The notes under the pieces: model-generated
What the model saw: the letters and a program-made list of their open reading frames with translations, nothing else
Databases searched by the model: none
Told to the model about the DNA's origin: nothing
Part shown: positions 2-35,298 of the stretch, piece by piece
Position numbering within the stretch: the first letter of the stretch is position 1
Layout of the letters: the number at the start of each line of letters is the position of its first letter
UHGV virus genome: UHGV-0272092
Length of the DNA: 37,793 bases
From: a virus
Reading direction: 5' to 3' (one strand)
Translations under genes and position numbers: made by a program

Positions 2-205
2 CTGTCATGGAGCACTATCGACCGTATGGAGCGCGCAGGGGAATTTCCTAAACGCTGGTATATCACCGATAAACGCTGCGCATGGAACCGTGATGAAGTT
101 GAGCGTTGGCTTGATGAACGTCAGGCAGCAAGCCCGGCAGAGTTCCAGGGTAAAAAGCCTCCTGTTCAGCAACGTGTATATCGTCCCGTGAGCAACGCTG
201 CATGA
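2..205 (+). CDS. AlpA-family DNA-binding protein (putative excisionase/regulator), 5'-truncated by window edge
   Basis: Frame 2 translates to ...STIDRMERAGEFPKRWYITDKRCAWNRDEVERWLDER..., matching the AlpA pattern (S-T-I-x-R...G-x-F-P-K...W...EV..W). Stop TGA at 203-205. Not in the ORF track because it lacks a start in the window. Confidence 0.5.
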   Translation: MSWSTIDRMERAGEFPKRWYITDKRCAWNRDEVERWLDERQAASPAEFQGKKPPVQQRVYRPVSNAA

Positions 206-344
206 GTGCGCTGCTAAGGCACTGGAGCAAATGGTCAGGATGGTACTTATTCCTGGCCTCTGTTTCAGCATGGCTTTATCTGCTGGCATTAATTTTCAGA
301 GAGGGTTGGATTAAGTGAGAAAGTTAAGCCGACTTGAAAAATAT

Positions 345-3020: not shown

Positions 3021-3503
3021 CTATCTGGTCAAAGTGTCGTACTGTTTTTCGCAGACTCTTCCGGCTTCGGCTGCCCGGTCAGCATACTCTGCCAGTTGTC
3101 TGTTTCTCTCGAGAGATTTGCTGAGCACGTCGGCAAGCAAAACTCCGGTGTCTGCGGCTGACGACCCAGCGCCGACAATGGCGTTATACTGCCTGAGCTG
3201 CTCACGGATGGCAAAGAGTTGTTGCTGCAACCGGCCAGCGCTAGCGGCAGCATCAAGAGCATCATTGCGCGCCTGGTCGATCCTCTGCTGAGCTTCACGT
3301 TCATTGGTCACTTTCTCCTGTTCGTAGTACTGACGAACTTTGTCTTCTTCGGCTTTGCGGTCTTCTTCCGCCTGAGCATACCCGGCATCGTACTGGCGAC
3401 TGCCGTGTATATTCCAGGCAACCACTCCTGATATGACCAGAACAGCAAGCACTGCCACGATAAGAAACTGTTTCCAGTATGCTTTTACGAATGCCCAGAT
3501 CAT
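3021..3503 (-). CDS. Rz-like i-spanin
   Basis: N-terminal transmembrane helix ([18 protein letters not shown]) followed by a charged coiled-coil region; directly downstream of the endolysin with overlapping start/stop. Confidence 0.7.
3029..3265 (-). CDS. Rz1-like o-spanin lipoprotein, embedded in Rz in an alternate frame
   Basis: Lipobox LPLALAGC followed by a Pro/Ser-rich region, fully nested in the Rz gene. Start taken at MMLLML; the track ORF opens at 3304. Confidence 0.6.
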   Translation of the reverse strand: MMLLMLPLALAGCSNNSLPSVSSSGSITPLSALGRQPQTPEFCLPTCSANLSRETDNWQSMLTGQPKPEESAKNSTTL

Positions 3504-4129
3504 ACCGCCAGCACCTTACTGGCAGTGATGTACCGCGCTCGCCGGTCGTCGATGCCGTTCCGGCCACCATTGATAATCAGAGTTACACGTGCAATATCGC
3601 CGGTATACTTCATGCATCCTTTGCTGGCGAAGAACCACGCCGCGCTACGAGCCGCATATTCGTCCTGCGCCAGCAGTTCAGGGCTCTCCAGCAGGTTAAC
3701 CTTCAGACCGTTTCCGCAATCACGATAGTTATTCAAACCGGTAATCTGGATAAGTCCGCGCCCTCGGTAATTCCAGCCATCACCAGGGGCATTGTTCCCC
3801 ATGCGTTTGCTGTATACCAGATTTGCGATCGCGCGCTGGCGCTCAAGTGGCAATGGTGGTTCACCAGCACGGCGCCCCAGTGCATTAGCCTGCCCCTGAG
3901 TGAGACGCCCAGCCCGAACGAAGTTAGCCAGTCCGCTGACACTGTAGTTGAAATTCTCCTGCAACCTGGTGAAGCCCCCAGACTCATGCCCGACTTGAGC
4001 AATAAACATTGCCTGATCTTCTGCTTTGCTGATACCAAACTCTTTCATCGCAGAAGTTATATGCGAGAACCAGCGTGCGGCCAGTGCCTCGCTGATACCA
4101 GCAGCTCGCTGGAATTGTTTAATCTCCAT
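3500..4129 (-). CDS. endolysin, glycoside hydrolase family 19 (chitinase-like lysozyme)
   Basis: Motifs [12 protein letters not shown] and [11 protein letters not shown]; start moved to MEIKQ (ATG at 4129), which abuts the stop of the upstream membrane-protein gene. Track ORF extends to 4294. Confidence 0.85.
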
Positions 4130-5099: not shown

Positions 5100-5126
5100 C
5101 CCGCAAAATATTGCGGGCTTTTTTTT
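5100..5126 (+). terminator. plus-strand intrinsic-terminator-like hairpin overlapping the tailspike stop codon
   Basis: CCCGCAA-AATA-TTGCGGG followed by C and eight T. No annotated plus-strand gene lies upstream. Confidence 0.5.
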
Positions 5127-8100
5127 AACGTTCTTCCAGAGACTGAATCCGCTCTTTTATCTTATCCATTTCTCTGCGCTGCCATGCTGCCTCGATATAG
5201 AATAAGAGATCAGGTCTGACCCCCCATCTAGATCCTGCTGGCGTTATTTCAACGCGCTCAATGATGTCTTCCATTACCATCACTGGATTATCATCCTCAT
5301 CAACAATGATGCTCCCGTCATTATCAGTCAGCGGCATTTCCCTTTGGCCAGTAATGACGTCATCATATACTGCGGGATAATCGTCATAGCAAAGAAAGGC
5401 ATAGCGGCATGTTGTGCTTTCTTCTTCCATGAGTCCGTGAGAAATAAGAACATCACGAAGTTGCTGCGCGATTACACCATGATGTATCCTCGCCCCTTCT
5501 TCCCCCTTTATAGCGACAGCGTTCAGCCATTTATAAGCGATATACCTGACGTCACCCCAGGCATCCAGCAATGCTTCGTCAGGAGAGACCGGCTCTGTCT
5601 TTAATGTTCCGTCACTGGTAACCACAGGATTGGAGCCAAGATAAACTGTCGAGAACCTGTTTCCCGGACCACCAAGAGCATTTACATTATCAAGATAAGG
5701 TTTAACATCTCCGTTCTCAAAAAGATGTTCGAGTGCGTTATATACCGCGCGACGTGGAGTACTGCTTCCGGAACCATGCAACGTTATCATTGCACCATCT
5801 GCTGAAGACGTTATTTCACCGCCGCTAACGATTAATCTCTGAGCGGTAACATCATCAGACGGTACTTTCTTCGCAATAATGGCGTAATTACCCTCAAGTT
5901 TGACTTCCGCGCGAACTTGTCCTGATGTACCTGCATGGACAGTCAGTGACTGGACGGCAACATCATCTGTGAAATCAACGGGTACAGGAACCGTCCTCAC
6001 GCCTGACGTCGACATAAAAGTAGGAAGCGTTCTGTTAGGAGTGGCTCCGTAGACAAAATCCCTTGAAACAAATTCTTCCTGTTTAATTTTCACCCTGAAA
6101 CAATACAAATCAGCCGGGTGACCATCGTGAACATAAGGATATTTTCTGTTGTTATCCCCTATGCTCCATGGGTTTAGAAAGTCTTCCCCACCGAAAATGT
6201 AGTACAGCCAGTTGTCTTTGATACAAACTGAACCAACACCAACTGCAGAGTTAACTATTCCGCCCTGATAAATCTGATCAGTAACATTAACCCACTCTAC
6301 ATTATCCAGACTCCACTCATTGACGTTAACTCTGGTCATAAATGTTCTTGGATAATTTCCTGCATAACGGTTATCAGGTTCTCCTCCTTCCCACTCACCA
6401 AATGCGCGCTCACTGCCAAAAATAATCAGCTCATCGCCAACTTTGGCAAAAGGAAGGTTTGAGTGATGAACATTATTTGGGAAGCGAAGAGAATTCCATG
6501 ATGTACCTAAATCAGAGCTTCTGTGCAATGAACTACCGGGTTGAGTACTTAATGTCCCCCTGGTCGTCAGATACAGAATGCCATCATAATATTTTACACA
6601 TGGCTCAGATGCATTCGCCTCATATTCTGCAGGTATGCGTCTGCGAACAAAGCTACCAGGAGAACCGAAAGCATCAGAGAAATAGAGTATCCCAAGCTCG
6701 CGTGGACCAATATCACCATTATGGTAGCCAACAGCAAAACTGTTATCGCTAATCGTCGCAAAACTGTGAATCTCAGTAACAGGAGTGCTTCCGTCAACAA
6801 AAGAAGGAATAGTTCCAAGACTGGTTTTTCTCCATGGTGACGAGTGAAATGATGTACCAAAACTCCAGTATCTACCCTCGTTATTCTGATCCACATCCTG
6901 GGTATTTTGCGTCGTAACTGTAAAAGTATTTTTATCAATAACAGTAGTCACCGTCATATTCCCGGTAACACCTGTAACACCAGAGTTTGAGAAGTTGACA
7001 AAATCACCAGCAAATAATCCGTGATCAGTAATGCGAATATAAGCGACTTGCTGATTTGCTGCTTTCGTTATACCACCATAAGCGCGAAGGCTGCGACTCA
7101 TTGGGCGATCCCACAACTCTGCAACCTGCAGTTTATTTCCGCTCACGGTCCGCGTCTCAATTACAGCAAAAAGGCGATTTCTGACAACCCCCATACTCAT
7201 GCAGTGATAGTTAACTGTGGGATAGTTTTCATGTAAATCTGTAAGCCATTCCGGCGTTGTCCAGGTCTTCCCGTCATCTCCTGAGCGAACCCATGCAACA
7301 TGGAGGTTATTTACACCATGGCGGTCTCCAGCCATAAAAGGCGCATAGATGACATTGTCATATACAAACGTTTTATCCTGCGTCCAGGCGTTGTACCACG
7401 GTGTATCTGTAATTTTAAATAACTCTCCCTGGATAAAATCTTCAGAAGCATAAAAAAGAGGCTGGCCCGGTATTCTCTCAAATAAAAAACGAGCATTTTT
7501 AAATCGACTGACATCCGGAAGAGTTGATACTTTAAAAGTAAGCCCTAATCCGTCAATTTTATAACCTGGAGATGAGGCTTCAAGGCACGCGCTTATTGCA
7601 GTGGAATCGTCATTTATACCATCACCAACAGCTCCAAAATCTTTGGGGCTAATAGCATCACGCATTTTATCCTGGAACGTTCGGTACACAGCCCCAGAAC
7701 CATACTGAATAAACCAACCAAAACCACCAACAACCCCGGCGATTGCAGCATCGACATAATTACGCATTGAGCGATTATTTACAGCGTCCTGCTCAAATGA
7801 TGGATCTGCAAGGTTAGAAATTTTGTTTTGCTTTGCATCGTAATATTTTGCAAGCAAAGATGGTTTCATCAATGCACGTCTGAACCACCCAAAACATTGC
7901 TGGATCAGCATCGTCAGGTAGTCAAAGGCATCTTCATGCACTTCGGGGAAAAATTTTCCCTGATTGCGAAGGTCTGTCTCCTGCACTACATCAAGCACAC
8001 GATCTATCGTAATTCGCCATCCAGTAGCAAGCGGAGACGGAAGAACCACAGAACCGCCACTATAAGTGCCCGCCCCAGTTACCGTATAACCGGTATCCAG

Positions 8101-8244
8101 AACCAATTCTGTTACGTTTCCGTTCAGGTCAGACACCTGAACAACCAGGTCTGATTTTCTGAAAATTCGAAAAGTATACGGAAACGATGTCGTAACGCCG
8201 TTACCGGTGTATTCGTTGTGGTCAACTTCGGTTGAGACCGTCAT
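5125..8244 (-). CDS. tailspike / tail fibre protein (1039 aa), probable polysaccharide depolymerase with C-terminal chaperone-like domain
   Basis: Size, position as last virion gene, and a C-terminal segment (GVIAQQLRDVL...) reminiscent of intramolecular chaperone domains of tailspikes. Confidence 0.7.
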   Translation of the reverse strand: MTVSTEVDHNEYTGNGVTTSFPYTFRIFRKSDLVVQVSDLNGNVTELVLDTGYTVTGAGTYSGGSVVLPSPLATGWRITIDRVLDVVQETDLRNQGKFFPEVHEDAFDYLTMLIQQCFGWFRRALMKPSLLAKYYDAKQNKISNLADPSFEQDAVNNRSMRNYVDAAIAGVVGGFGWFIQYGSGAVYRTFQDKMRDAISPKDFGAVGDGINDDSTAISACLEASSPGYKIDGLGLTFKVSTLPDVSRFKNARFLFERIPGQPLFYASEDFIQGELFKITDTPWYNAWTQDKTFVYDNVIYAPFMAGDRHGVNNLHVAWVRSGDDGKTWTTPEWLTDLHENYPTVNYHCMSMGVVRNRLFAVIETRTVSGNKLQVAELWDRPMSRSLRAYGGITKAANQQVAYIRITDHGLFAGDFVNFSNSGVTGVTGNMTVTTVIDKNTFTVTTQNTQDVDQNNEGRYWSFGTSFHSSPWRKTSLGTIPSFVDGSTPVTEIHSFATISDNSFAVGYHNGDIGPRELGILYFSDAFGSPGSFVRRRIPAEYEANASEPCVKYYDGILYLTTRGTLSTQPGSSLHRSSDLGTSWNSLRFPNNVHHSNLPFAKVGDELIIFGSERAFGEWEGGEPDNRYAGNYPRTFMTRVNVNEWSLDNVEWVNVTDQIYQGGIVNSAVGVGSVCIKDNWLYYIFGGEDFLNPWSIGDNNRKYPYVHDGHPADLYCFRVKIKQEEFVSRDFVYGATPNRTLPTFMSTSGVRTVPVPVDFTDDVAVQSLTVHAGTSGQVRAEVKLEGNYAIIAKKVPSDDVTAQRLIVSGGEITSSADGAMITLHGSGSSTPRRAVYNALEHLFENGDVKPYLDNVNALGGPGNRFSTVYLGSNPVVTSDGTLKTEPVSPDEALLDAWGDVRYIAYKWLNAVAIKGEEGARIHHGVIAQQLRDVLISHGLMEEESTTCRYAFLCYDDYPAVYDDVITGQREMPLTDNDGSIIVDEDDNPVMVMEDIIERVEITPAGSRWGVRPDLLFYIEAAWQRREMDKIKERIQSLEER

Positions 8245-20983: not shown

Positions 20984-21976
20984 TTACACCACGCGGGCTT
21001 CTGTTTCCAGAAGCGCATCAGTTTCACGGATTGGTACACCACGGAATGAAGTCCACCACTCGCCTTCTGTCTCTTTTACGCTGATAGCCAGAGATGTTTT
21101 CTCCAGAGACTGCAGATCAAGAGCCTGGCCTACAGTGCGGTTCATGTAGAACACCGGGCGGCCCATGCCACGGTTTGGAATGCGATGTAGTGCTTTAACC
21201 ATCAACTTCGCAATATTTGCGGCAGAGGATGGTTCTGAAAGATTGCTGACATCGATGTTTGCAATGCGAACAACATAACGCCAGTCACGCAGAGCAAGTC
21301 CGTTATCCCATTTGTAATGGGTGCGATAGCCTTCGTACTTGCCGCCATTAGCATCTTCCAGTGTCACCTGGCCTTTATCTTCCATCTGGATGCCAGCCTT
21401 CTGCCCTTTCGGGAAGATGCCATGCACGGTGTTTTCGCCCCACACCACTAACCAGATTGAGGTGTTATCTGTACCCGTGCCACCAGCATCAATGATGTTC
21501 TGAGCATTACCCGCAGACAGGCTGGAATAGCGGGAGGACAGTCCCATAAACTGCTGAGGGTTAACGCTGGAATCACCATAAAACAGCGTCTGCGCCATCT
21601 GCTGATTCATCGCTTCAATAAATGCGCGGTCTTCAGACAGGCGGAATTCGGCGGTATTGCCGTTCAGATCAGCCAGTGACTTATCGACTTCCGCATAGGT
21701 TTCCAGCATGCCAACGGAATCGGTTACCTGCACTGTGGTTGATTTGCTTGGCTGTACGCCATAGTTCAGCAAACGCCAGGTAGCTGAAGGTAAACCAGAA
21801 CGAATGGTGGTTCGGTGTCCGGTAGGAAGGTTCCCTTCGACAAAAGGCATATCCTGAAGGATCGGGTTAGTTTGACCGAGAAGCTCGATAATCTTATCGA
21901 CTTTCCCGTTTGGATCGACGCGCTTACCCCAGTCAGCCAGCGTTAGCGCAGTTAAGCCTTTAACAGCCATTGTCAT
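20984..21976 (-). CDS. major capsid protein (330 aa)
   Basis: Position after portal and scaffold; size typical of HK97-fold capsid proteins. Confidence 0.7.
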   Translation of the reverse strand: MTMAVKGLTALTLADWGKRVDPNGKVDKIIELLGQTNPILQDMPFVEGNLPTGHRTTIRSGLPSATWRLLNYGVQPSKSTTVQVTDSVGMLETYAEVDKSLADLNGNTAEFRLSEDRAFIEAMNQQMAQTLFYGDSSVNPQQFMGLSSRYSSLSAGNAQNIIDAGGTGTDNTSIWLVVWGENTVHGIFPKGQKAGIQMEDKGQVTLEDANGGKYEGYRTHYKWDNGLALRDWRYVVRIANIDVSNLSEPSSAANIAKLMVKALHRIPNRGMGRPVFYMNRTVGQALDLQSLEKTSLAISVKETEGEWWTSFRGVPIRETDALLETEARVV

Positions 21977-21984
21977 TTCCTCTC

Positions 21985-22686
21985 TTATTTGCCATAGAGC
22001 ACTTCGGCCGCACTACGCTGGCCTTCATTACCACCGGTGACCATGCCATCTTCAGACATCGCCTTTCCGATTTTCACGAACGTTTTGACCAGATCAGGGT
22101 GATTACCCAGCCCGGTGGTGTTCAGATATTCTTTGAGTTCAGGTGTCCCGAACTGGTCAAGCGCACGCTGTGCGGCGCTAAGGTTAGAAATCAACTTGTC
22201 GCCACCGATTTCTTTGTCGGCTTTTACATCCGCAGCCCACTGCTCGGTTGTTTTCTGCCAGGCTTCTGCCTGGCGCTGCTGAACACCTGCCAGAATCTTC
22301 GGATAAGCATCAACCAGCTTTTGCGCTTGCTCGTTGGTCAGGTTTAGTTCTCGCGCCACCGGCTCGAATTCCTTCAACGCTTCTGTATCCAGCTCTACGC
22401 CTTCGGCAGCCTGAAACTCGTACTTTTCAGGCGCACCCTCTGGTTTATCGCCGTCCTTTTTTTCATCCTGCTTATCGTTTTCAGGCTTTTTGTCATCAGC
22501 AGGTTTATCGCCATCAGCAACAGGTTGTGGCTTATCACCTTCCTGTTGTGATGGATCACCAACTGGAGCAGGGTTATCACCTGCAGGCGCTGACGGTTCT
22601 GACGCAGCCGGAGCTGCTCCACCATCGACTGGTTGCTCATTGCAAAGACGGCGATACAGCAAACGCTCAAATAAATTCATGATCAC
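21985..22686 (-). CDS. putative scaffolding protein (acidic, Pro/Asp/Lys-rich N-terminal half)
   Basis: Low-complexity acidic region plus helical C-terminal half; sits between portal and major capsid. Confidence 0.5.
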   Translation of the reverse strand: MIMNLFERLLYRRLCNEQPVDGGAAPAASEPSAPAGDNPAPVGDPSQQEGDKPQPVADGDKPADDKKPENDKQDEKKDGDKPEGAPEKYEFQAAEGVELDTEALKEFEPVARELNLTNEQAQKLVDAYPKILAGVQQRQAEAWQKTTEQWAADVKADKEIGGDKLISNLSAAQRALDQFGTPELKEYLNTTGLGNHPDLVKTFVKIGKAMSEDGMVTGGNEGQRSAAEVLYGK

Positions 22687-22979
22687 TCCTGTTCACTGGC
22701 CTCTTTGGCCATCTTCAAATACTGTTCAGGGCAATGCGCCATAACGCGCTGAAACAGTTCCAGCGCCAGATTGCGTTGCCCCTCATTAAATGCCATTGCC
22801 ATAGCATCCATCGGAGAGATAGCGGAAAACACCCGGCCTTTCTCCAGCACCGACCAGACAACGCGACGCCCCTGTTCACTGCTCATGACAAAGCGAATGT
22901 CATCAATTTCACGCTGTGCCATGTCACGTTGCTTACGGGCGTTTTCTTCTTTCAGTTGATCGTCTTCGAAATCTGTCAT
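22683..22979 (-). CDS. hypothetical head-morphogenesis protein (98 aa)
   Basis: Overlapping start/stop with portal and scaffold genes. Confidence 0.4.
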   Translation of the reverse strand: MTDFEDDQLKEENARKQRDMAQREIDDIRFVMSSEQGRRVVWSVLEKGRVFSAISPMDAMAMAFNEGQRNLALELFQRVMAHCPEQYLKMAKEASEQE

Positions 22980-24655
22980 TGTGATTGCCCACCCTGACCA
23001 CTAACTGCATTCGCCATAGCTGACAAAACACTCGGATCCGAAGTTTTAGCTTCGCTTAGCGTCTTGGCACCCTGTGCCGCCGCCATCCCCATCGCCATCA
23101 TTTGTTGCTGCTGTTGTTGCTGTGCCCGTTGCTGGCGAGCCTGCTCAACCTGTTCCTGCGGAACAATGACGGTTGGAGACACTCCGGACATATCAGCGAA
23201 TGCATCGATCGCCTGATCAACGTTGAGTTTGTCGAGAGCTTCTGGTTTCGCTTGCGCAAGTTGACCAATGAAGTTAACCGTGGACGCCAGACTGGACAGG
23301 CCGATAGACTTCTGCGCCTGAGCCATGACGGAAATGTATTCGACCTTCAGGGGCATGCCTTCCATCGCGTCAGGCGGTGTCGGCAGCATGTTTTTACGCA
23401 CCATCATCGAGAAAGCGCGGTCAATGAGAGGATTAAGACATTCGTCGTTCAGACGCTCCAGAACCGGCCCCAACATCAGAAGTTTTTCTTCTTTCATTTC
23501 GATCACCGCTTCAACAGGCATCGAGCGGGTATTGATGTTCTGCAACATCATGAACAGATCGACAAAGTAGGCGCTGTTAATGATTTGACGGGTGTCCTGA
23601 ATGTCTGCCACCAAATCTGCTGTACTGGGGTTAACCAGATAAGCAGGCCTGAAACCATCCTGACCAGTAATCTGATCGATATACGTGATGTCGCCAGGAA
23701 GAAGGGAGGCACGCTGATTCTTGAGGGAAGTCGGAGCAACCATCGGCGGATTGGTGGCTTTATCAATCAACTGCGACTTGCGCTTCTGGAGAAGCTGCAA
23801 TGCCTTAACAGGTCCAAGCGCCAGCATACCCGGGCATGATGATCCATAAACATCTTCGCCGTTAACTTCCCAGCGCGGAGCCATAATTGGAAACTCATCG
23901 AATCCGGACTCACGCAACAACTTGTCGTTATCGCCACCAACCTCGTAATAAACCGATTTGAATGGCTTGTTCTTGCTATCCAGCTTCGATGTATCGCGGT
24001 CAATGTTCGGGTAAACCGAATGCATCACTTCAATCCACTTCTCGTAGGTGCCGCTTTCCCACATGCTTTTTACGGATTCGCTGACGTTATTTAGCCCGAA
24101 CTCCTGAACAAGCTGACGAACAGTCATAGAGAACTTGCGAAAACAGGTGTCCACACTGCCACGAGGTGAGTTAGCCAGGTAGTAACTGCCTATCGGGAAT
24201 GGCATTGTGCGAATGATGTCCTCGTCATCCTCCAGCACCGCCATTGCACCAGTGCTGTATGTGCCGAGGCTTCCGTATAACTGCGGAAGAGACTGGTAGA
24301 GATTCGACTTATTGAACATATCGTTCATGCGGTTCTGAACTGCCTCAAGCCACAACTTAACAGGGCCATAGTCCATCATTTCAGGATCTGGCGTAGCCAG
24401 GCGAAACCACGGACGGGCGGGGCTTGTTATGCCTGACATCATGCCGCTGGCAAGAGTGCGCGCCGCCATAGTCCCGGTCGAATCAATAATGCGTGTATTG
24501 CGTCGATCGTTACGGTTAACCTCAGAAGTCAGAAAGCGGGAACCACGCGGGTTGATGTAATCACTCAACTCGCGCCAGTGCGGCTCGAACGACTGACGCT
24601 CGCTTTCAAGTTGTGCGAACTGTTTGTTCAATCGCTCTTTAGTTGTTTCCGCCAT
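22976..24655 (-). CDS. portal protein (559 aa)
   Basis: Size, position after terminase, RBS GGAG 9 nt upstream of ATG 24655. Confidence 0.75.
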   Translation of the reverse strand: MAETTKERLNKQFAQLESERQSFEPHWRELSDYINPRGSRFLTSEVNRNDRRNTRIIDSTGTMAARTLASGMMSGITSPARPWFRLATPDPEMMDYGPVKLWLEAVQNRMNDMFNKSNLYQSLPQLYGSLGTYSTGAMAVLEDDEDIIRTMPFPIGSYYLANSPRGSVDTCFRKFSMTVRQLVQEFGLNNVSESVKSMWESGTYEKWIEVMHSVYPNIDRDTSKLDSKNKPFKSVYYEVGGDNDKLLRESGFDEFPIMAPRWEVNGEDVYGSSCPGMLALGPVKALQLLQKRKSQLIDKATNPPMVAPTSLKNQRASLLPGDITYIDQITGQDGFRPAYLVNPSTADLVADIQDTRQIINSAYFVDLFMMLQNINTRSMPVEAVIEMKEEKLLMLGPVLERLNDECLNPLIDRAFSMMVRKNMLPTPPDAMEGMPLKVEYISVMAQAQKSIGLSSLASTVNFIGQLAQAKPEALDKLNVDQAIDAFADMSGVSPTVIVPQEQVEQARQQRAQQQQQQQMMAMGMAAAQGAKTLSEAKTSDPSVLSAMANAVSGQGGQSQ

Positions 24656-24669
24656 TTCAATGACTCCGG

Positions 24670-24876
24670 TTACTGACCAAGCAGCGTTTTACCGCTGGTA
24701 TTAGCGGTTGATGTGTCGCCCTGAGAACCGGTAAGCAGCGTAGAACTACGACCAGCAGCAGCGCGACGGCGACGAGTTTCTTCGTCGCGGGCATCAACAA
24801 CGGCGGCATCCTGCTCCTGTGGTGCTGCCTGAACTTCTGGTGTTGCAGGCACTGATGGTGAGCTACCCATGCACAT
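24670..24876 (-). CDS. small protein upstream of portal (68 aa)
   Basis: Start context GGAGTCATTGATATG is near-identical to the portal start context GGAGTCATTGAAATG. Confidence 0.45.
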   Translation of the reverse strand: MCMGSSPSVPATPEVQAAPQEQDAAVVDARDEETRRRRAAAGRSSTLLTGSQGDTSTANTSGKTLLGQ

Positions 24877-24914
24877 ATCAATGACTCCGTACGCAATTAA
24901 ATTATTACCAATTT

Positions 24915-24925
24915 AACCACATATG
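24915..24925 (-). promoter_or_regulatory. conserved element AACCACATATG upstream of the head operon
   Basis: Identical to 8309-8319; preceded by ATTACC-N5. Confidence 0.45.
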
Positions 24926-24966
24926 ATTTATTTATCGTAGGTAGTTGACATTTAACGCACAAATTA

Positions 24967-24981
24967 TTACCTTTCAGGTAA
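24967..24981. promoter_or_regulatory. operator-like palindrome TTACCTTTCAGGTAA
   Basis: Identical to the copy at 8349-8363. Confidence 0.55.
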
Positions 24982-25303
24982 CCAAAGAGTTCATTCCGGT
25001 TACTAACCTGACTGGCTTGTCGTTAAATTGAACAGGTGGAGTGAGCTTTTATTTTGAGCAGTACGGCGTATGGCACATGCGCCGATAGCGGTCTGGATAC
25101 GTTTAAGGGGCACCCTCCCTTGCTCGGGCAAACGAACCAGGTAGCCGGAATGTGCAAGTCGAGCGGTTTTATTCCGCGCACGGGGATTCACCATCCCGGC
25201 GATTCGGTGTGACGCCTCGGAAGAGACGAGGGTACAACGATGAGAGCATTTATGGAGCCGCGACAAAGTGTGGCGCCTTAACAGGCTAAGTGCTCTCAGC
25301 GTT

Positions 25304-25380
25304 GTGGCATTAGCTCAGTTGGACAGAGCAACCGCCTTCTAAGCGGTTGGTCGCAGGTTCGAATCCTGCATGCCACGCCA
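25304..25380 (+). tRNA. tRNA-Arg (anticodon UCU), 77 nt including CCA
   Basis: Hand-folded cloverleaf: acceptor GTGGCAT/ATGCCAC, D-stem GCTC/GAGC, anticodon stem ACCGC/GCGGT with loop CTTCTAA, T-stem GCAGG/CCTGC with loop TTCGAAT, discriminator G, CCA. Confidence 0.85.
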
Positions 25381-25423
25381 GAATCACGCCTAAGGACCGT
25401 GATGCCAGAAGTTCCAGGTGCTT

Positions 25424-25466
25424 GGCGGTGATGGTTTCCCTTGAAGGACTATCACCGCCCTTTTTA
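25424..25466 (+). terminator. rho-independent terminator downstream of the tRNA
   Basis: Stem GGCGGTGATGG / CTATCACCGCC followed by CTTTTT. Confidence 0.65.
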
Positions 25467-25543
25467 CAGCAGGACGCCATTGCGATGACTTCATGCTGTA
25501 AACCAGTACAGCCACGGAAGGCATAACTCATTGCTTCCAGTTC

Positions 25544-25568
25544 GCCCGGTTCGTCCGGGCATTTTTTT
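25544..25568 (+). terminator. second terminator/attenuator-like hairpin immediately upstream of the RBS of the 25581 gene
   Basis: GCCCGG-TTCGT-CCGGGC followed by A and seven T, then AAGGTG RBS. Confidence 0.5.
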
Positions 25569-25580
25569 AAGGTGAAAATC

Positions 25581-25913
25581 ATGAAAGAGAAGACTGCAGC
25601 TGAGCGCTATGCCGCAGCTATCAATGCCGCGATGGCGATTGTAAACCTGCGTGAAGAGATTAAAGATCTCCTTGCAATTATCCATAACAACCTGACATGT
25701 ACAGAGTTGCTTGGCGGTCAGTACAACGGTGAGGCGGTGAAGGAGGCATTTAAAAATGCCGAGGTAGGAATAATTCCAGCAAACTATGTCAAGGCTGAAT
25801 GTGTGCTCCTAAAGGCACGAGTGAGTCTGCATGAAGATCCTGGTAATCTCGGTCGAACTGCAATGCGTTACGTGATAGACGAGTCGAATGCCAAACACAA
25901 TCTACCGAAATAA
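25581..25913 (+). CDS. hypothetical protein (110 aa), plus-strand gene between terminase and portal
   Basis: ATG 25581 with RBS AAGGTGA; track ORF opens at GTG 25572. No family recognised. Confidence 0.55.
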   Translation: MKEKTAAERYAAAINAAMAIVNLREEIKDLLAIIHNNLTCTELLGGQYNGEAVKEAFKNAEVGIIPANYVKAECVLLKARVSLHEDPGNLGRTAMRYVIDESNAKHNLPK

Positions 25914-25916
25914 CAC

Positions 25917-25928
25917 CGTGACATGTCA
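25917..25928. promoter_or_regulatory. 12-bp palindrome GTGACATGTCAC (copy 2 of 3)
   Basis: Exact repeat of 8722-8733 and 28183-28194. Confidence 0.5.
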
Positions 25929-26003
25929 CAAACAGACAGCCTATGAGCTGGCTTTGTTTTATCCTCACCAGAGGATATCAACGACATTATCCCCACCAGC
26001 GGA

Positions 26004-27479
26004 TTAAGCATAGGGATCGTAATCTGTGATGGCCTTGCCTTGCTGGTTCTGCTGACCGGGAATTCGCAGACGCTTCGACACAGGGAACGCAAACGTCAGC
26101 AGTAGCGCATCGCCTTTACCAGGAGAACGCCCAAGTCGCTCTTTGATATCTTCCTTCGGTTCGATAACGATTTTACCGTCCACTCGAACTTTGTACTCTG
26201 CTGCCGACAGGTCGTCCGCTGTTTCCTGGTCATCCAGCATGCCGCCCAGCCTCAGCCATGTCTTGCATGAATTGAACATCTCCCCACGCTTGTTGAGCAT
26301 CTGCGGGTCAGTAGACGCGCCACCGAACGGAACAAGTTGCCATGTACGACCCCATCCGTCACCGATTGACTTCAGACCGGTTCCGTAACCGAAGTCGATG
26401 AACACCGCGTCAGCCTGATACTGGTCTTCAAAGTCAGCGATACGCTTCGCCATAATCAGATCGTCGGTAGTCTTGTTGCCAGTCCACAGCACCTTACTGT
26501 GTAGCCCCTGCCGCAGGTATATCACCGCGTCATCAACGCCTGAATATGCCGGGTCAACACCGATTATCACCGGAGCATGCGCCACCTGCGCAGCGGTTAC
26601 CACCCGTTTCATTGCCTCATCAGTAAGACCGGTAGGGATAAACTGCAATTCAGATGCATCAGGGAATATGCCGCGCACACGGATTTTAACGAAGTCGCTG
26701 TCTTCCCCGTAGTCATCAACCCATTTCTGCAACTGCTGTTTGTTAGTGCCTTCCACCGTTCGGCTGTCAATCTGCGCAGTTTTCCAGCGGTGTTTATATT
26801 TGCGGAAACATTCGCGGAAACGTCCGGTATTACGCGTCGGGTTTCCGAACGCCACCCAGATAATCTCAGTGTCTTCGTCCGTTAGTGCACCCTCGGCAAC
26901 TTCCCACACCAGATCCGCAATGTTCGACGCTTCATCGAATACCACGATGATGCGTTTGCGCTCGTTGTGTAGTCCGGCGAATGCCTCAGTGTTGTGCTCA
27001 GACCAGGGGATTGCGTCAGCTCGCCACCGCTTGTCGTGTCCAGGATCATTGCTGTACATCGCGGTAGCGGTACAGGTAAACCAGTCTTTCGTGATAGCAA
27101 GGTTCGACCACTTGATAATTTCCGGCCAGGTCTTCGTTCGTAGCTGGTTGTCGGTGTTGGCGGTCACCACGACCTTACAATCCTCGCAAGTGGACATGCC
27201 CCAGTTGATCAGCATTGAGATGAATGCGGATTTACCAATACCGTGACCCGAAGCACGTGCCAGCATAAGCGGCTGATAGCGCGTCTCTGGATTCTGCAGG
27301 TGATCACGTATCTCTCGGAACGCATCAGCCTGCCACTGACGTGGGCCGGTAGCATGTGCCAGTTCAGTCCCCTCTTCCCCCCACGGGAACGCATAGAGGG
27401 CATAGCCAAGCGGATCGTGAGTGAACCCTGCAATATCCTCGATCAACTGCTCTTCAGGAGATAACGCTGTATCTGTCAC
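26004..27479 (-). CDS. terminase large subunit (491 aa)
   Basis: Size, position downstream of the small subunit with 4-nt overlap; N-terminal ATPase-like and C-terminal nuclease-like composition. Confidence 0.8.
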   Translation of the reverse strand: MTDTALSPEEQLIEDIAGFTHDPLGYALYAFPWGEEGTELAHATGPRQWQADAFREIRDHLQNPETRYQPLMLARASGHGIGKSAFISMLINWGMSTCEDCKVVVTANTDNQLRTKTWPEIIKWSNLAITKDWFTCTATAMYSNDPGHDKRWRADAIPWSEHNTEAFAGLHNERKRIIVVFDEASNIADLVWEVAEGALTDEDTEIIWVAFGNPTRNTGRFRECFRKYKHRWKTAQIDSRTVEGTNKQQLQKWVDDYGEDSDFVKIRVRGIFPDASELQFIPTGLTDEAMKRVVTAAQVAHAPVIIGVDPAYSGVDDAVIYLRQGLHSKVLWTGNKTTDDLIMAKRIADFEDQYQADAVFIDFGYGTGLKSIGDGWGRTWQLVPFGGASTDPQMLNKRGEMFNSCKTWLRLGGMLDDQETADDLSAAEYKVRVDGKIVIEPKEDIKERLGRSPGKGDALLLTFAFPVSKRLRIPGQQNQQGKAITDYDPYA

Positions 27480-28072
27480 TGATTACCATCCTGACGTTCT
27501 TTGAGTCGCTTCCTGGCTGCTGCTATGCGATCAGCAATTGTCACATTCACATTAACATCCAGACGTTCTTTGAACGCGTTGACATCAACATGCTTACCAA
27601 TCAGCTCAAGGTTCTTCACCTTGTCAGGCCATTTAATTTTTTTGAGGATTGTCTCTATCGAATCCTCGTTCATGTTCATGATGGTCGATGACAGATCAAA
27701 GCCACTAAGCGTAGTGCGCCAGATTTTCGGCCACTCACGGATTGGTTTAAGGCTCCCATCGTCGTTGAGGATGTCGATCACGTCCATCTGGTCGATCTCC
27801 ACCAGGCGCATGAGAACGTAATCAGCACTGACGCGCATTCGTTTGTTGCGCTCCTCCATCAACTCGGCAATCCGTTTTTGAATGCGTTCATCGCGCATCA
27901 TGACACTGGCTTTAACTGCCGCTGTATTTGGGGAGAATCCTGCGTTAATCGCTGCCTGAGTCTGGTTTTCAGGCGTTTTGATGTATGACTGGCAATAAGC
28001 CTCCTGCATTGCTGTTAGTGGCTTAAATTGCGTTGATTTGCGTTTATAGGTTTTAGGTTCAGCAGGCATCAT
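27476..28072 (-). CDS. terminase small subunit
   Basis: Position; start moved to MMPAEPK (ATG 28072, RBS GGTGG) because the upstream extension to 28150 contains a terminator hairpin and direct repeats. Confidence 0.65.
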   Translation of the reverse strand: MMPAEPKTYKRKSTQFKPLTAMQEAYCQSYIKTPENQTQAAINAGFSPNTAAVKASVMMRDERIQKRIAELMEERNKRMRVSADYVLMRLVEIDQMDVIDILNDDGSLKPIREWPKIWRTTLSGFDLSSTIMNMNEDSIETILKKIKWPDKVKNLELIGKHVDVNAFKERLDVNVNVTIADRIAAARKRLKERQDGNQ

Positions 28073-28081
28073 AACCACCGT

Positions 28082-28111
28082 GGTAATAGTTACCGTTGTG
28101 GTAATAGTACC
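28082..28111 (-). repeat. tandem direct repeat GGTAATAGT(T)ACC x2 directly upstream of the small terminase start
   Basis: GGTAATAGTTACC (28082-28094) and GGTAATAGTACC (28100-28111). Confidence 0.5.
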
Positions 28112-28141
28112 ATGCAAAATAAAGCCGCCATAGTTGGCGGC
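28112..28141 (-). terminator. rho-independent terminator between the accessory early genes and the terminase genes
   Basis: Stem GCCGCCA / TGGCGGC; on the minus strand followed by TTTATTTTG. Confidence 0.6.
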
Positions 28142-28182
28142 AGTATTCAAAACCCATCAAATTCATCATGCATAATCTACTC

Positions 28183-34461: not shown

Positions 34462-34523
34462 TCACCCATAAGGTAACAAAAATCAAGGATAGTTACCTAT
34501 GAGGTGCATTTACCTGTTGGGTA
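34462..34523. promoter_or_regulatory. OR-like operator cluster with three sites: TCACCCATAAGGTAA (34462-34476), TTACCTATGAGGTGC (34493-34507), TTACCTGTTGGGTAA (34509-34523)
   Basis: Three 15-bp sites in the divergent intergenic region between the Cro-like and repressor genes. Confidence 0.65.
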
Positions 34524-35221: not shown

Positions 35222-35298
35222 TTACCTTACGGGTAATTTTTTTAACTCATATCTATTGACACCAAACCAAATAAGCATAATTATTACCCCAACGGTAA
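35222..35298 (+). promoter_or_regulatory. OL-like region: operators TTACCTTACGGGTAA (35222-35236) and TTACCCCAACGGTAA (35284-35298) flanking a sigma70-like promoter (-35 TTGACA 35256-35261)
   Basis: TTGACA followed 14-16 nt later by CATAAT/ATAATT; the second operator overlaps the start region. Confidence 0.6.

Follow-up and report, generated by a model that had tools for sequence, protein, structure and literature searches.

A tRNA-Arg(UCU) gene fused to a conserved structured leader RNA in a Uetakevirus genome

The tRNA-Arg(UCU) gene and its rightward unit

We analyzed virus genome UHGV-0272092 as one stretch of 37,793 nt (the window), which represents a phiV10/epsilon15-like temperate podovirus of the genus Uetakevirus, and considered in particular its gene for tRNA-Arg(UCU). 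In the whole 37.8-kb window ARAGORN found a single tRNA, tRNA-Arg with anticodon tct, at 25304–25380 on the plus strand; the Rfam tRNA model (RF00005) matched it over model positions 1–71 with a score of 73.3 bits (gathering score 29, E-value 2.3e-14). The cloverleaf given by this model is complete, all stems are Watson–Crick paired and the 3′ CCA is present in the DNA. The ARAGORN call and the Rfam score bear out the original prediction, made from the letters alone, of a complete, well-folded tRNA-Arg(UCU). The prediction was also right in placing the gene on the strand opposite to the late genes: TerS (27476–28150), TerL (26004–27479), a small gp3-like open reading frame (ORF; 24670–24876) and the portal gene (22976–24655) are all on the minus strand. 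The position between the large terminase and portal genes holds in outline; the interval is shared by the minus-strand gp3-like ORF and a plus-strand ORF at 25581–25913.

The tRNA interval is 96–99% identical to phiV10, vB_EcoP_ZX5, HEMP4 and O157 typing phages 9 and 10. The same tRNA-Arg gene is annotated at the same place in O157 typing phages 9 and 10, phiv142-3, SPN9TCW and SPC32H/N, and a tRNA-Arg is annotated in many RefSeq prophages of E. coli as well. Thus, the gene is not new, and the tRNA itself does not differ from that of the annotated relatives; taken alone it adds little, being one more rare-codon tRNA of a temperate phage. Of more interest, and better supported, is the composite unit around it: a putatively repressible promoter, a new leader RNA family, conserved terminators, and a tRNA and cargo that can both be exchanged. 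From left to right we see a TTGACA promoter overlapped by a putative repressor site, the leader, tRNA-Arg(UCU), a terminator (T1), a spacer, a second terminator (T2) and a swappable ORF; together they would form one rightward mini-unit, and this stretch lies inside the leftward packaging/head operon.

In pairwise comparison with argU of E. coli K-12 (b0536) the phage tRNA was identical at 64 of 77 positions and different at 13. Four pairs of the acceptor stem and two pairs of the anticodon stem are swapped through compensated changes; the anticodon and the anticodon loop CUUCUAA are the same, and the D and T arms are nearly identical. The phage tRNA retains A20, C35 and the discriminator G73 as in argU; A20, C35 and a G or A at position 73 are identity elements for arginyl-tRNA synthetase. 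Judged by its sequence, the phage gene is a canonical tRNA-Arg(UCU). The compensated changes confirm that the acceptor stem is unlike that of host argU, as had been claimed.

The related claim, that the tRNA is phage cargo rather than a rebuilt integration site, was correct too. Unlike argU, the phage copy is fused to a leader RNA and does not lie at the attachment site. The sequence ATTGAGTGGGAATGATT, which is the attP core of this phage group with integration at the 3′-end of guaA (PMC9782041), is intact at 2894–2910 and adjoins the integrase gene (1453–2703). As this core is beside the integrase gene and 22 kb away from the tRNA, the latter is not a reconstituted attachment site; the tRNA is also full length, with the acceptor stem that sets it apart from argU.

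A structured RNA in front of the tRNA

Relatives hardly differ in the 430 nt that separate the gp3-like ORF from the tRNA, and ∼240 nt of this stretch match unrelated phages that have no tRNA there (E. coli PhiR63_1, Stenotrophomonas BUCT709, Enterobacter Tyrion). In the alignment of these leaders we saw invariant blocks with hairpins between them; the hairpins carry compensatory changes, and the indels are not multiples of three. The fold was derived by RNAalifold and an explicit structure count from 26 diverse members: a 244-nt pseudoknotted RNA (25064–25303, plus strand in the window) with eight helices, the pseudoknot included, and 48 pairs, which were 97.7% paired over the 26 sequences. 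Double compensatory changes were present in 16 pairs. The covariation value was 0.274 versus at most 0.061 for slid partners, and none of 500 shuffles reached 0.274.

Helix P1 pairs 25064–72 with 25076–84, and P2 pairs 25089–95 with 25138–47; a 19-mer starting at 25140 is invariant. P3 is at 25158–60/25198–200 and P4 at 25183–86/25194–97; in the pseudoknot (25189–92/25206–09) the loop CACC pairs with a downstream GGUG, covarying to AACC with GGUU. P5 is the GGAAGAG hairpin (25215–19/25227–31). The last helix, P6 (25235–52/25287–25304), closes with the pair C25235–G25304, and G25304 is at the same time nucleotide 1 of the tRNA. The conserved 3′-end of the leader, GUUGUGG, overlaps the 5′ acceptor strand of the tRNA and is kept in members without a tRNA as well; the fused tRNAs, without exception, keep GUGGCAU as their 5′ acceptor strand, with the 3′ strand drifting to G–U pairs. 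These two observations fit a dual constraint on the 5′ acceptor strand. In the P6 loop insert of some leaders (L100, L009/L036, L096) there are T-arm-like strings, GGTTCGATTCC and GGTTCAATTCC; ARAGORN calls no tRNA in these inserts, and the strings could be T-loop modules or remnants of tRNAs.

Some annotators have placed minus-strand ORFs over the homologous stretch, namely in PhiR63_1, BUCT709, mEp460 and Tyrion, and one could take the sequence upstream of the tRNA as protein-coding. We give this next to no credence: translations from the homologs have no mutual similarity, the indels are out of step with triplets and the substitutions compensate each other within helices. Covariation and unrelated translations together refute a coding reading of the 430 nt.

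No Rfam 15 family covered the leader in the window at E ≤ 10, nor the leader copies of P1, lambdoid phages and the Stenotrophomonas phage at E ≤ 0.1. The leader as a C4/P4-CI-like RNA, a T-box, a Y-RNA or GOLLD/ROOL was rejected, as none of these gave an Rfam match. Three sub-threshold matches (RyhB-like at T2, RprA-like at the 3′-end of the BUCT709 copy and STnc100-like in P1) were taken as terminator-driven or due to chance.

A scan of IMG/VR with the invariant 19-mer GGTAGCCGGAATGTGCAAG found it in at least 120 contigs; in a species-representative genome set it was present in 24 contigs from at least 12 genera of Enterobacterales. The leader was found in 1064 of 5426 complete E. coli genomes (∼20%), at 965 chromosomal and 276 plasmid places, and in 78 phage records. 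Among the latter are classic phages (P1, P7), D6, mEp460 and 2H10, and medically relevant phages (Stx2c, Stx2k, cdtI). Among the matches listed, the leader was either unannotated or covered by hypothetical ORFs only, and literature searches covering phiV10, Uetakevirus, P1 trnI/ban, N-independent lambdoid phages and ST64B small RNAs turned up no account of it. The family is widespread and apparently undescribed: a large pseudoknotted RNA, supported by covariation and without an Rfam family, in about one-fifth of complete E. coli genomes.

The tRNA-Arg(UCU) is fused to the leader at exactly the same junction in 29 of 127 loci; in 16 others of the 127 a tRNA(CAU) ends ∼35 nt upstream of the leader. 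All fused loci have the Uetakevirus portal/TerL layout. With this layout in common the tRNA fusion is probably of one lineage, and the leader subtypes within it are attributed to recombination; independent origins of the fusion were ruled out on the same ground.

In other phages the leader is found just downstream of cI-type repressor genes (HTH, mostly with Peptidase_S24), as in PhiR63_1, mEp460, cdtI, Stx2a_1447 and BUCT709. In four further subtypes the same-strand gene directly upstream codes for an HTH_3 repressor, with Peptidase_S24 in three of the four. As a rule cro points leftward and cI rightward; next in order come the cI terminator, operators with a promoter, the leader and the early-left operon, which in several lambdoid cases is yfdP-yfdQ-yfdR. 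In the lambdoid phages a single stretch separates P_L from the early-left genes, and the leader occupies it. According to a 2025 survey (PMC12315714), lambdoid phages with the yfdP-yfdQ-yfdR early-left operon have no N homolog, and a put-like RNA was speculated; the leader occupies the position where N-less lambdoid phages should hold their early antitermination device. In two leader-carrying lambdoid phages (L004 at 707–895 and L129 at 80–268, minus strand) the Rha/antirepressor region has Rfam-significant matches to C4 antisense RNA and isrK; leader-carrying lambdoid phages thus are rich in regulatory RNAs.

Phage P1 has leader positions 1–152 (E-value 2.4e-33), 16 nt after the tRNA-Ile(CAU) gene trnI and ∼100 nt before ban, which is part of a c1-repressed operon. 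It differs from the window in that the tRNA is upstream, not downstream, of the leader and that P6 and T1 are absent. About 1 kb upstream of trnI, P1 (L127, AF234173) carries two P6-like hairpin modules (CAAC..GAGARCA...UGYUCUC..GUUGYGG) at 37–175 and 352–435, opposite in strand to the annotated genes plp and upl; the STnc100-like sub-threshold match directly follows the second module.

Transcription of the unit and possible action of the leader

A candidate promoter of the island is located at 24945–24973 (plus strand), with the −35 element TTGACA at 24945–24950, a 17-nt spacer and the −10 element TACCTT at 24968–24973. It is identical in phiV10, phiv142-3 and a prophage of E. coli BCE049. 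An operator-like palindrome, TTACCTTTCAGGTAA (24967–24981), overlaps the −10 element and the start site, and TTGACA-N17-TACCTT together with the palindrome also precedes leaders in two unrelated contigs (L071 and L120). The stretch from here to the leader (24982–25063, plus strand) is conserved, by the alignments, in Uetakeviruses only.

The pattern TTACCT-N3-AGGTAA with at most two mismatches occurs 13 times in the window versus 0.74 expected (0 of 100 shuffles). Such sites flank the HTH repressor gene, at 34462, 34493 and 34510 on one side and at 35222 and 35284 on the other: three are between the cro-like gene and the repressor gene, and two flank a TTGACA promoter directly after the terminator of the repressor gene. 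In phage ZX5 the identical repressor protein was shown experimentally to turn off lytic genes (PMC9782041). The island, we infer, is an early-type unit under control of the repressor. Perfect or near-perfect copies of the pattern are also present at 2746 (upstream of the integrase gene) and 8349 (upstream of the tailspike gene), and a pair of sites (32161, 32223) follows a lambda-P-like replication gene; the repressor may control promoters beyond P_L and P_R.

Behind the tRNA a trailer hairpin, ATCACG...CGTGAT (25383–25403, plus strand), is followed by T1 (25424–25465, plus strand), with a 14-bp stem (25424–25459), CUUUUU and a free energy of −22.8 kcal/mol. The strong terminator foreseen for the tRNA is indeed there and is conserved in relatives, among which its upper stem covaries. 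An energy-based terminator detector was too rigid and missed known hairpins, and homology-guided patterns were used for T1 and T2 instead; the T1 pattern was GGCGGY...RCCGC with a U run, at −16 to −22 kcal/mol. By this pattern T1 homologs were found downstream of 76 of 110 unique leaders (23 of 26 fused, 53 of 71 tRNA-less and none of 13 P1-type loci) and nowhere in 901 kb of flanking background; a generic strict stem-loop scan gave enrichment chiefly in fused loci. The second terminator, T2 (25544–25568, plus strand), consists of GCCCGG-TTCGT-CCGGGC (25544–25560), then A and U7, at −13.3 kcal/mol; it covaries to GCCCAC/GTGGGC in L009 and L097, and 24 of the 26 fused loci have it. Between the terminators there is a conserved 37-nt block, AGCAGGACGCCATTGCGATGACTTCATGCTGTAAACC (25468–25504, plus strand), nearly invariant in tRNA-fused loci, in which neither a convincing promoter nor an ORF nor a covarying structure was found. 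A small RNA could span T1 to T2; the one Rfam match here is the weak RyhB-like one at T2.

A ribosome binding site (RBS), AGGTGA (25570–25575, plus strand), abuts the U-tract of T2 and precedes the cargo ORF of 110 aa (25581–25913, plus strand). The only match of the cargo ORF was phrog_27507; there was none in Pfam, NCBIfam or PADLOC, and no tblastn match among 50,697 phage records. Its homologs fall into 15 clusters, all unannotated, and the region that includes it was covered to at least 80% in only 2 of 5426 E. coli genomes. In phiV10 the slot holds a Gp49/Sf6-gp66 protein (PF13876), phiv142-3 is without the cassette, and over the fused loci the conserved RBS after T2 is followed by at least seven different cargo ORFs, with at least five N-termini besides those of the window and phiV10, or by none; in L001 the slot is at 3485–3856. 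With the RBS contiguous to the U-tract there is no room for a promoter, so the cargo ORF would be made only through read-through.

The tRNA, too, can be exchanged. In the BCE049 prophage (L134, NZ_CP042250, 2685–3344) identity to the window extends over the promoter and two-thirds of the leader from its 5′-end; another leader subtype and a ∼220-nt segment that is not a tRNA come next, and the two sequences meet again in the tRNA trailer, where the right part of the trailer hairpin (∼25392) is the right junction of the swap. T1, T2 and the cargo ORF are shared with the window. By this comparison the tRNA is one allele of a swappable slot. The ∼220-nt segment starts with GTGGTGAATGCGCAGGCTGATGCGC; it also comes after the leader in Tyrion and in lambdoid phages. 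The island exemplifies how a phage tRNA can be wired, as an interchangeable module behind a constant leader, with repressor control as the inferred input.

We propose that the unit would be silent in the lysogen and would fire upon derepression or infection. A cut by RNase P at U25303/G25304 would free the tRNA and make the 3′-end of the leader, and the tRNA would raise decoding of AGA, a codon frequent in early, tail and tailspike genes. The leader would work in cis, on the RNA polymerase that transcribes it, as an anti-pausing element or a processive antiterminator, its function resembling that of HK022 put or of a boxA-based complex; it would let transcription of a long untranslated RNA pass T1 and T2 into the cargo ORF and, in lambdoid relatives, read through into the early-left operon. 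For the whole of this explanation (repressed unit, RNase P release, AGA decoding and cis-acting leader) we see an about even chance. That the leader is a processive antiterminator or anti-pausing RNA is put forward tentatively, at a little below even. We hold it possible, if rather more doubtful still, that it would be the founder of a new RNA class, unrelated to put, that makes host RNA polymerase terminator-resistant, alone or with Nus factors; as such it would be the early antiterminator of N-less lambdoid phages (ST64B/SfV/cdtI/Stx2c type) and would serve ban in P1 and the tRNA and cargo in phiV10-like phages.

Several observations point this way. Unpaired blocks such as the 19-mer GGUAGCCGGAAUGUGCAAG are invariant across different immunity types and at least 12 genera, as would be expected if the partner were a conserved host component, e.g. 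RNA polymerase or Nus factors. The leader is located as put RNAs are, just 3′ of an early promoter that is presumably repressor-controlled, and before terminators. In this it is like putL and putR of HK022 and the putL-like RNA of HK639 (the latter taken from the annotation of the HK639 record): promoter-proximal cis RNAs in early operons of N-less lambdoid phages, upstream of terminators (PMC9378689). The 3′ strand of P6 resembles boxA (UGCUCUY), and in 2 of 112 unique loci (L085-type) the canonical rrn boxA, GCUCUUUAACAA, after a hairpin replaces the P6 strand. P6-like modules are strand-specific, 101 being on the same strand versus 5 on the opposite one. BoxA is known to serve long untranslated RNAs, among them CRISPR arrays (PMC7665894).

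Rare-codon tRNAs are known from other phage units subject to antitermination. In Stx phages ileZ-argN-argO are carried in the Q-antiterminated late transcript of lambdoid phages; we know of no homologous leader there.

A number of points weigh against this proposal. The put RNAs of HK022 are ∼70 nt long with two stems (PMC9378689), whereas the leader, with 244 nt and eight counted helices including a pseudoknot, is three times as long; put sits at both P_L and P_R, whereas the leader is present once per phage. No sequence similarity of the leader to putL of HK022 or the putL-like RNA of HK639 was found by nhmmer, and its Smith–Waterman scores against the two were no better than those of dinucleotide shuffles (p 0.15 and 0.83). 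The core UGCUCUY of the boxA consensus (UGCUCUUUAACAA or CGCUCUUA) is present but base-paired in P6, and in most members the boxA-like string is inside this helix; enrichment of boxA is not independent evidence, because it comes from a conserved P6 strand of homologs. Unlike at lambda nut, where an N-like partner with an arginine-rich motif goes with a boxB hairpin, no N-like protein is conserved beside the leader. P1-type members lack both P6 and T1. The tandem terminators could just shield the convergent TerL gene, and leakage could account for expression of the cargo ORF. Finally, a strict consensus scanner did not call the island promoter, since its −10 element is weak (three of six consensus matches).

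Several candidate likenesses were discarded. A 16-mer nhmmer match in HK022 was due to chance and inside the nun ORF; a by-eye likeness of ACGGCG...CAUGCGUCG to stem I of putL did not beat shuffles; and short ORFs after the leader, considered as N-like micro-ORFs, were not conserved between alleles.

The conservation of the promoter–leader–T1 module in 76 of 110 loci would also be expected if the leader were a stand-alone stable RNA acting in trans and ending at T1, with the tRNA or the ∼220-nt segment as 3′ cargo or as a handle for RNase P processing. In trans, a host protein or RNA could be the partner of the invariant unpaired blocks; the leader meets tRNAs in two ways, with tRNA-Arg fused 3′ (29 loci) or with tRNA(CAU) ∼35 nt upstream (16 loci and P1); and the constancy of GUGGCAU opposite a drifting 3′ strand is in keeping with such a role. 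Leakage or other promoters would then be the only sources of downstream ORF expression, and it is here that the view meets difficulties. The RBS of the cargo touches T2 and leaves no promoter space, two lambdoid examples had no sigma-70-like site from T1 to the first ORF, the lambdoid leader fills the sole stretch from P_L to the early-left genes, and P1-type copies have no terminator ahead of ban. We consider a trans-acting RNA unlikely, though a serious competitor.

A local decision on T1 formation by the leader as a sensor, be it a riboswitch or an attenuator binding a protein or a tRNA, is far less probable. In favor of a sensor, the leader has a complex fold with a pseudoknot, keeps unpaired nucleotides invariant and has a conserved terminator after it. 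However, T1 is 60–300 nt away with interchangeable cargo between, which makes mutually exclusive pairing with the leader, and hence a local riboswitch-type switch, unlikely; no complementarity between leader and T1 was noticed, and there was no Rfam riboswitch match. With respect to T1, action of the leader at a distance is possible, and so is T1 as merely the end point of the RNA.

Codon supply, defence and neighboring features

The original prediction named two uses of a phage tRNA, supply for rare AGA codons and replacement of host tRNAs cleaved by anticodon nucleases. Codon usage was computed on a greedy non-overlapping ORF set of the phage, and a 45-kb sample of E. coli K-12 was scored alike. 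AGA made up 7.6 per 1000 codons (12% of Arg codons) in the phage versus 2.1 per 1000 (3.6% of Arg codons) in the K-12 sample, a 3.6-fold difference (p 1.6e-10). AGA is common in tail and early genes; the tailspike gene, with 16 AGA and 8 AGG among 58 Arg codons, is the largest single user of the phage tRNA. Not a single AGA is present in the head-module ORFs (20984–24655) and in both terminase genes (26004–28150). The phage-wide enrichment gives correlative support to the first use, and the tRNA plausibly is an AGA supplier. Two facts reduce the weight of this argument: AGG and AUA are enriched as well, and the phage has no matching tRNAs for them; and since the head genes, the most highly expressed ones, avoid AGA, the gain in codon supply may be modest.

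The second use fared worse. Phage tRNAs can rescue infection from tRNA-targeting defences, as described in two reports (PMC10264068, PMC11555353), and the main role of this tRNA might be to stand in for host tRNA-Arg(UCU) cleaved or modified by such immunity. Its stems are unlike those of argU, and it is located in a variable accessory island with cargo genes of unassigned role. However, one of these accounts proposes evasion of anticodon nucleases for phage tRNAs with an altered anticodon loop (PMC10264068), and here the loop CUUCUAA is the same as in argU, so nothing indicates nuclease evasion. Neither cargo protein had a PADLOC match, and the co-transcribed ORF thus gave no defence-related hit; a near-identical prophage, that of BCE049, does without the tRNA; a nuclease specific for tRNA-Arg(UCU) was not found in the literature searched; and AGA enrichment offers a simpler reason. 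An anti-defence role therefore appears improbable to us.

An ORF antisense to the island (25310–25582, minus strand; the equivalent of phiV10p04, phrog_4647) spans the tRNA, T1 and T2. In this region the indels of relatives are not multiples of three, one of them being a 1-nt indel in the loop of T2, and the ORF is most likely an annotation artefact rather than a gene.

Between the convergent cargo ORF and TerL there is a weak hairpin (25937–25950, −7.9 kcal/mol), the phiV10 counterpart of which is annotated as a terminator. Late transcription that runs from TerL on to the gp3-like ORF and the portal gene must cross ∼1.1 kb of untranslated sequence (24877–26003, minus strand), antisense to the whole island; leftward late transcription and rightward transcription of the island would collide, with only this weak hairpin between them.

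The tailspike gene (5125–8244, minus strand) codes for a full endosialidase, with End_N_terminal, beta-propeller, beta-barrel, tail-spike and S74 chaperone domains, which suggests a Uetakevirus with specificity for the K1 capsule. A DNA methyltransferase of the MT-A70 family is encoded on the plus strand at 595–1257, near the end of the window that carries the integrase gene.

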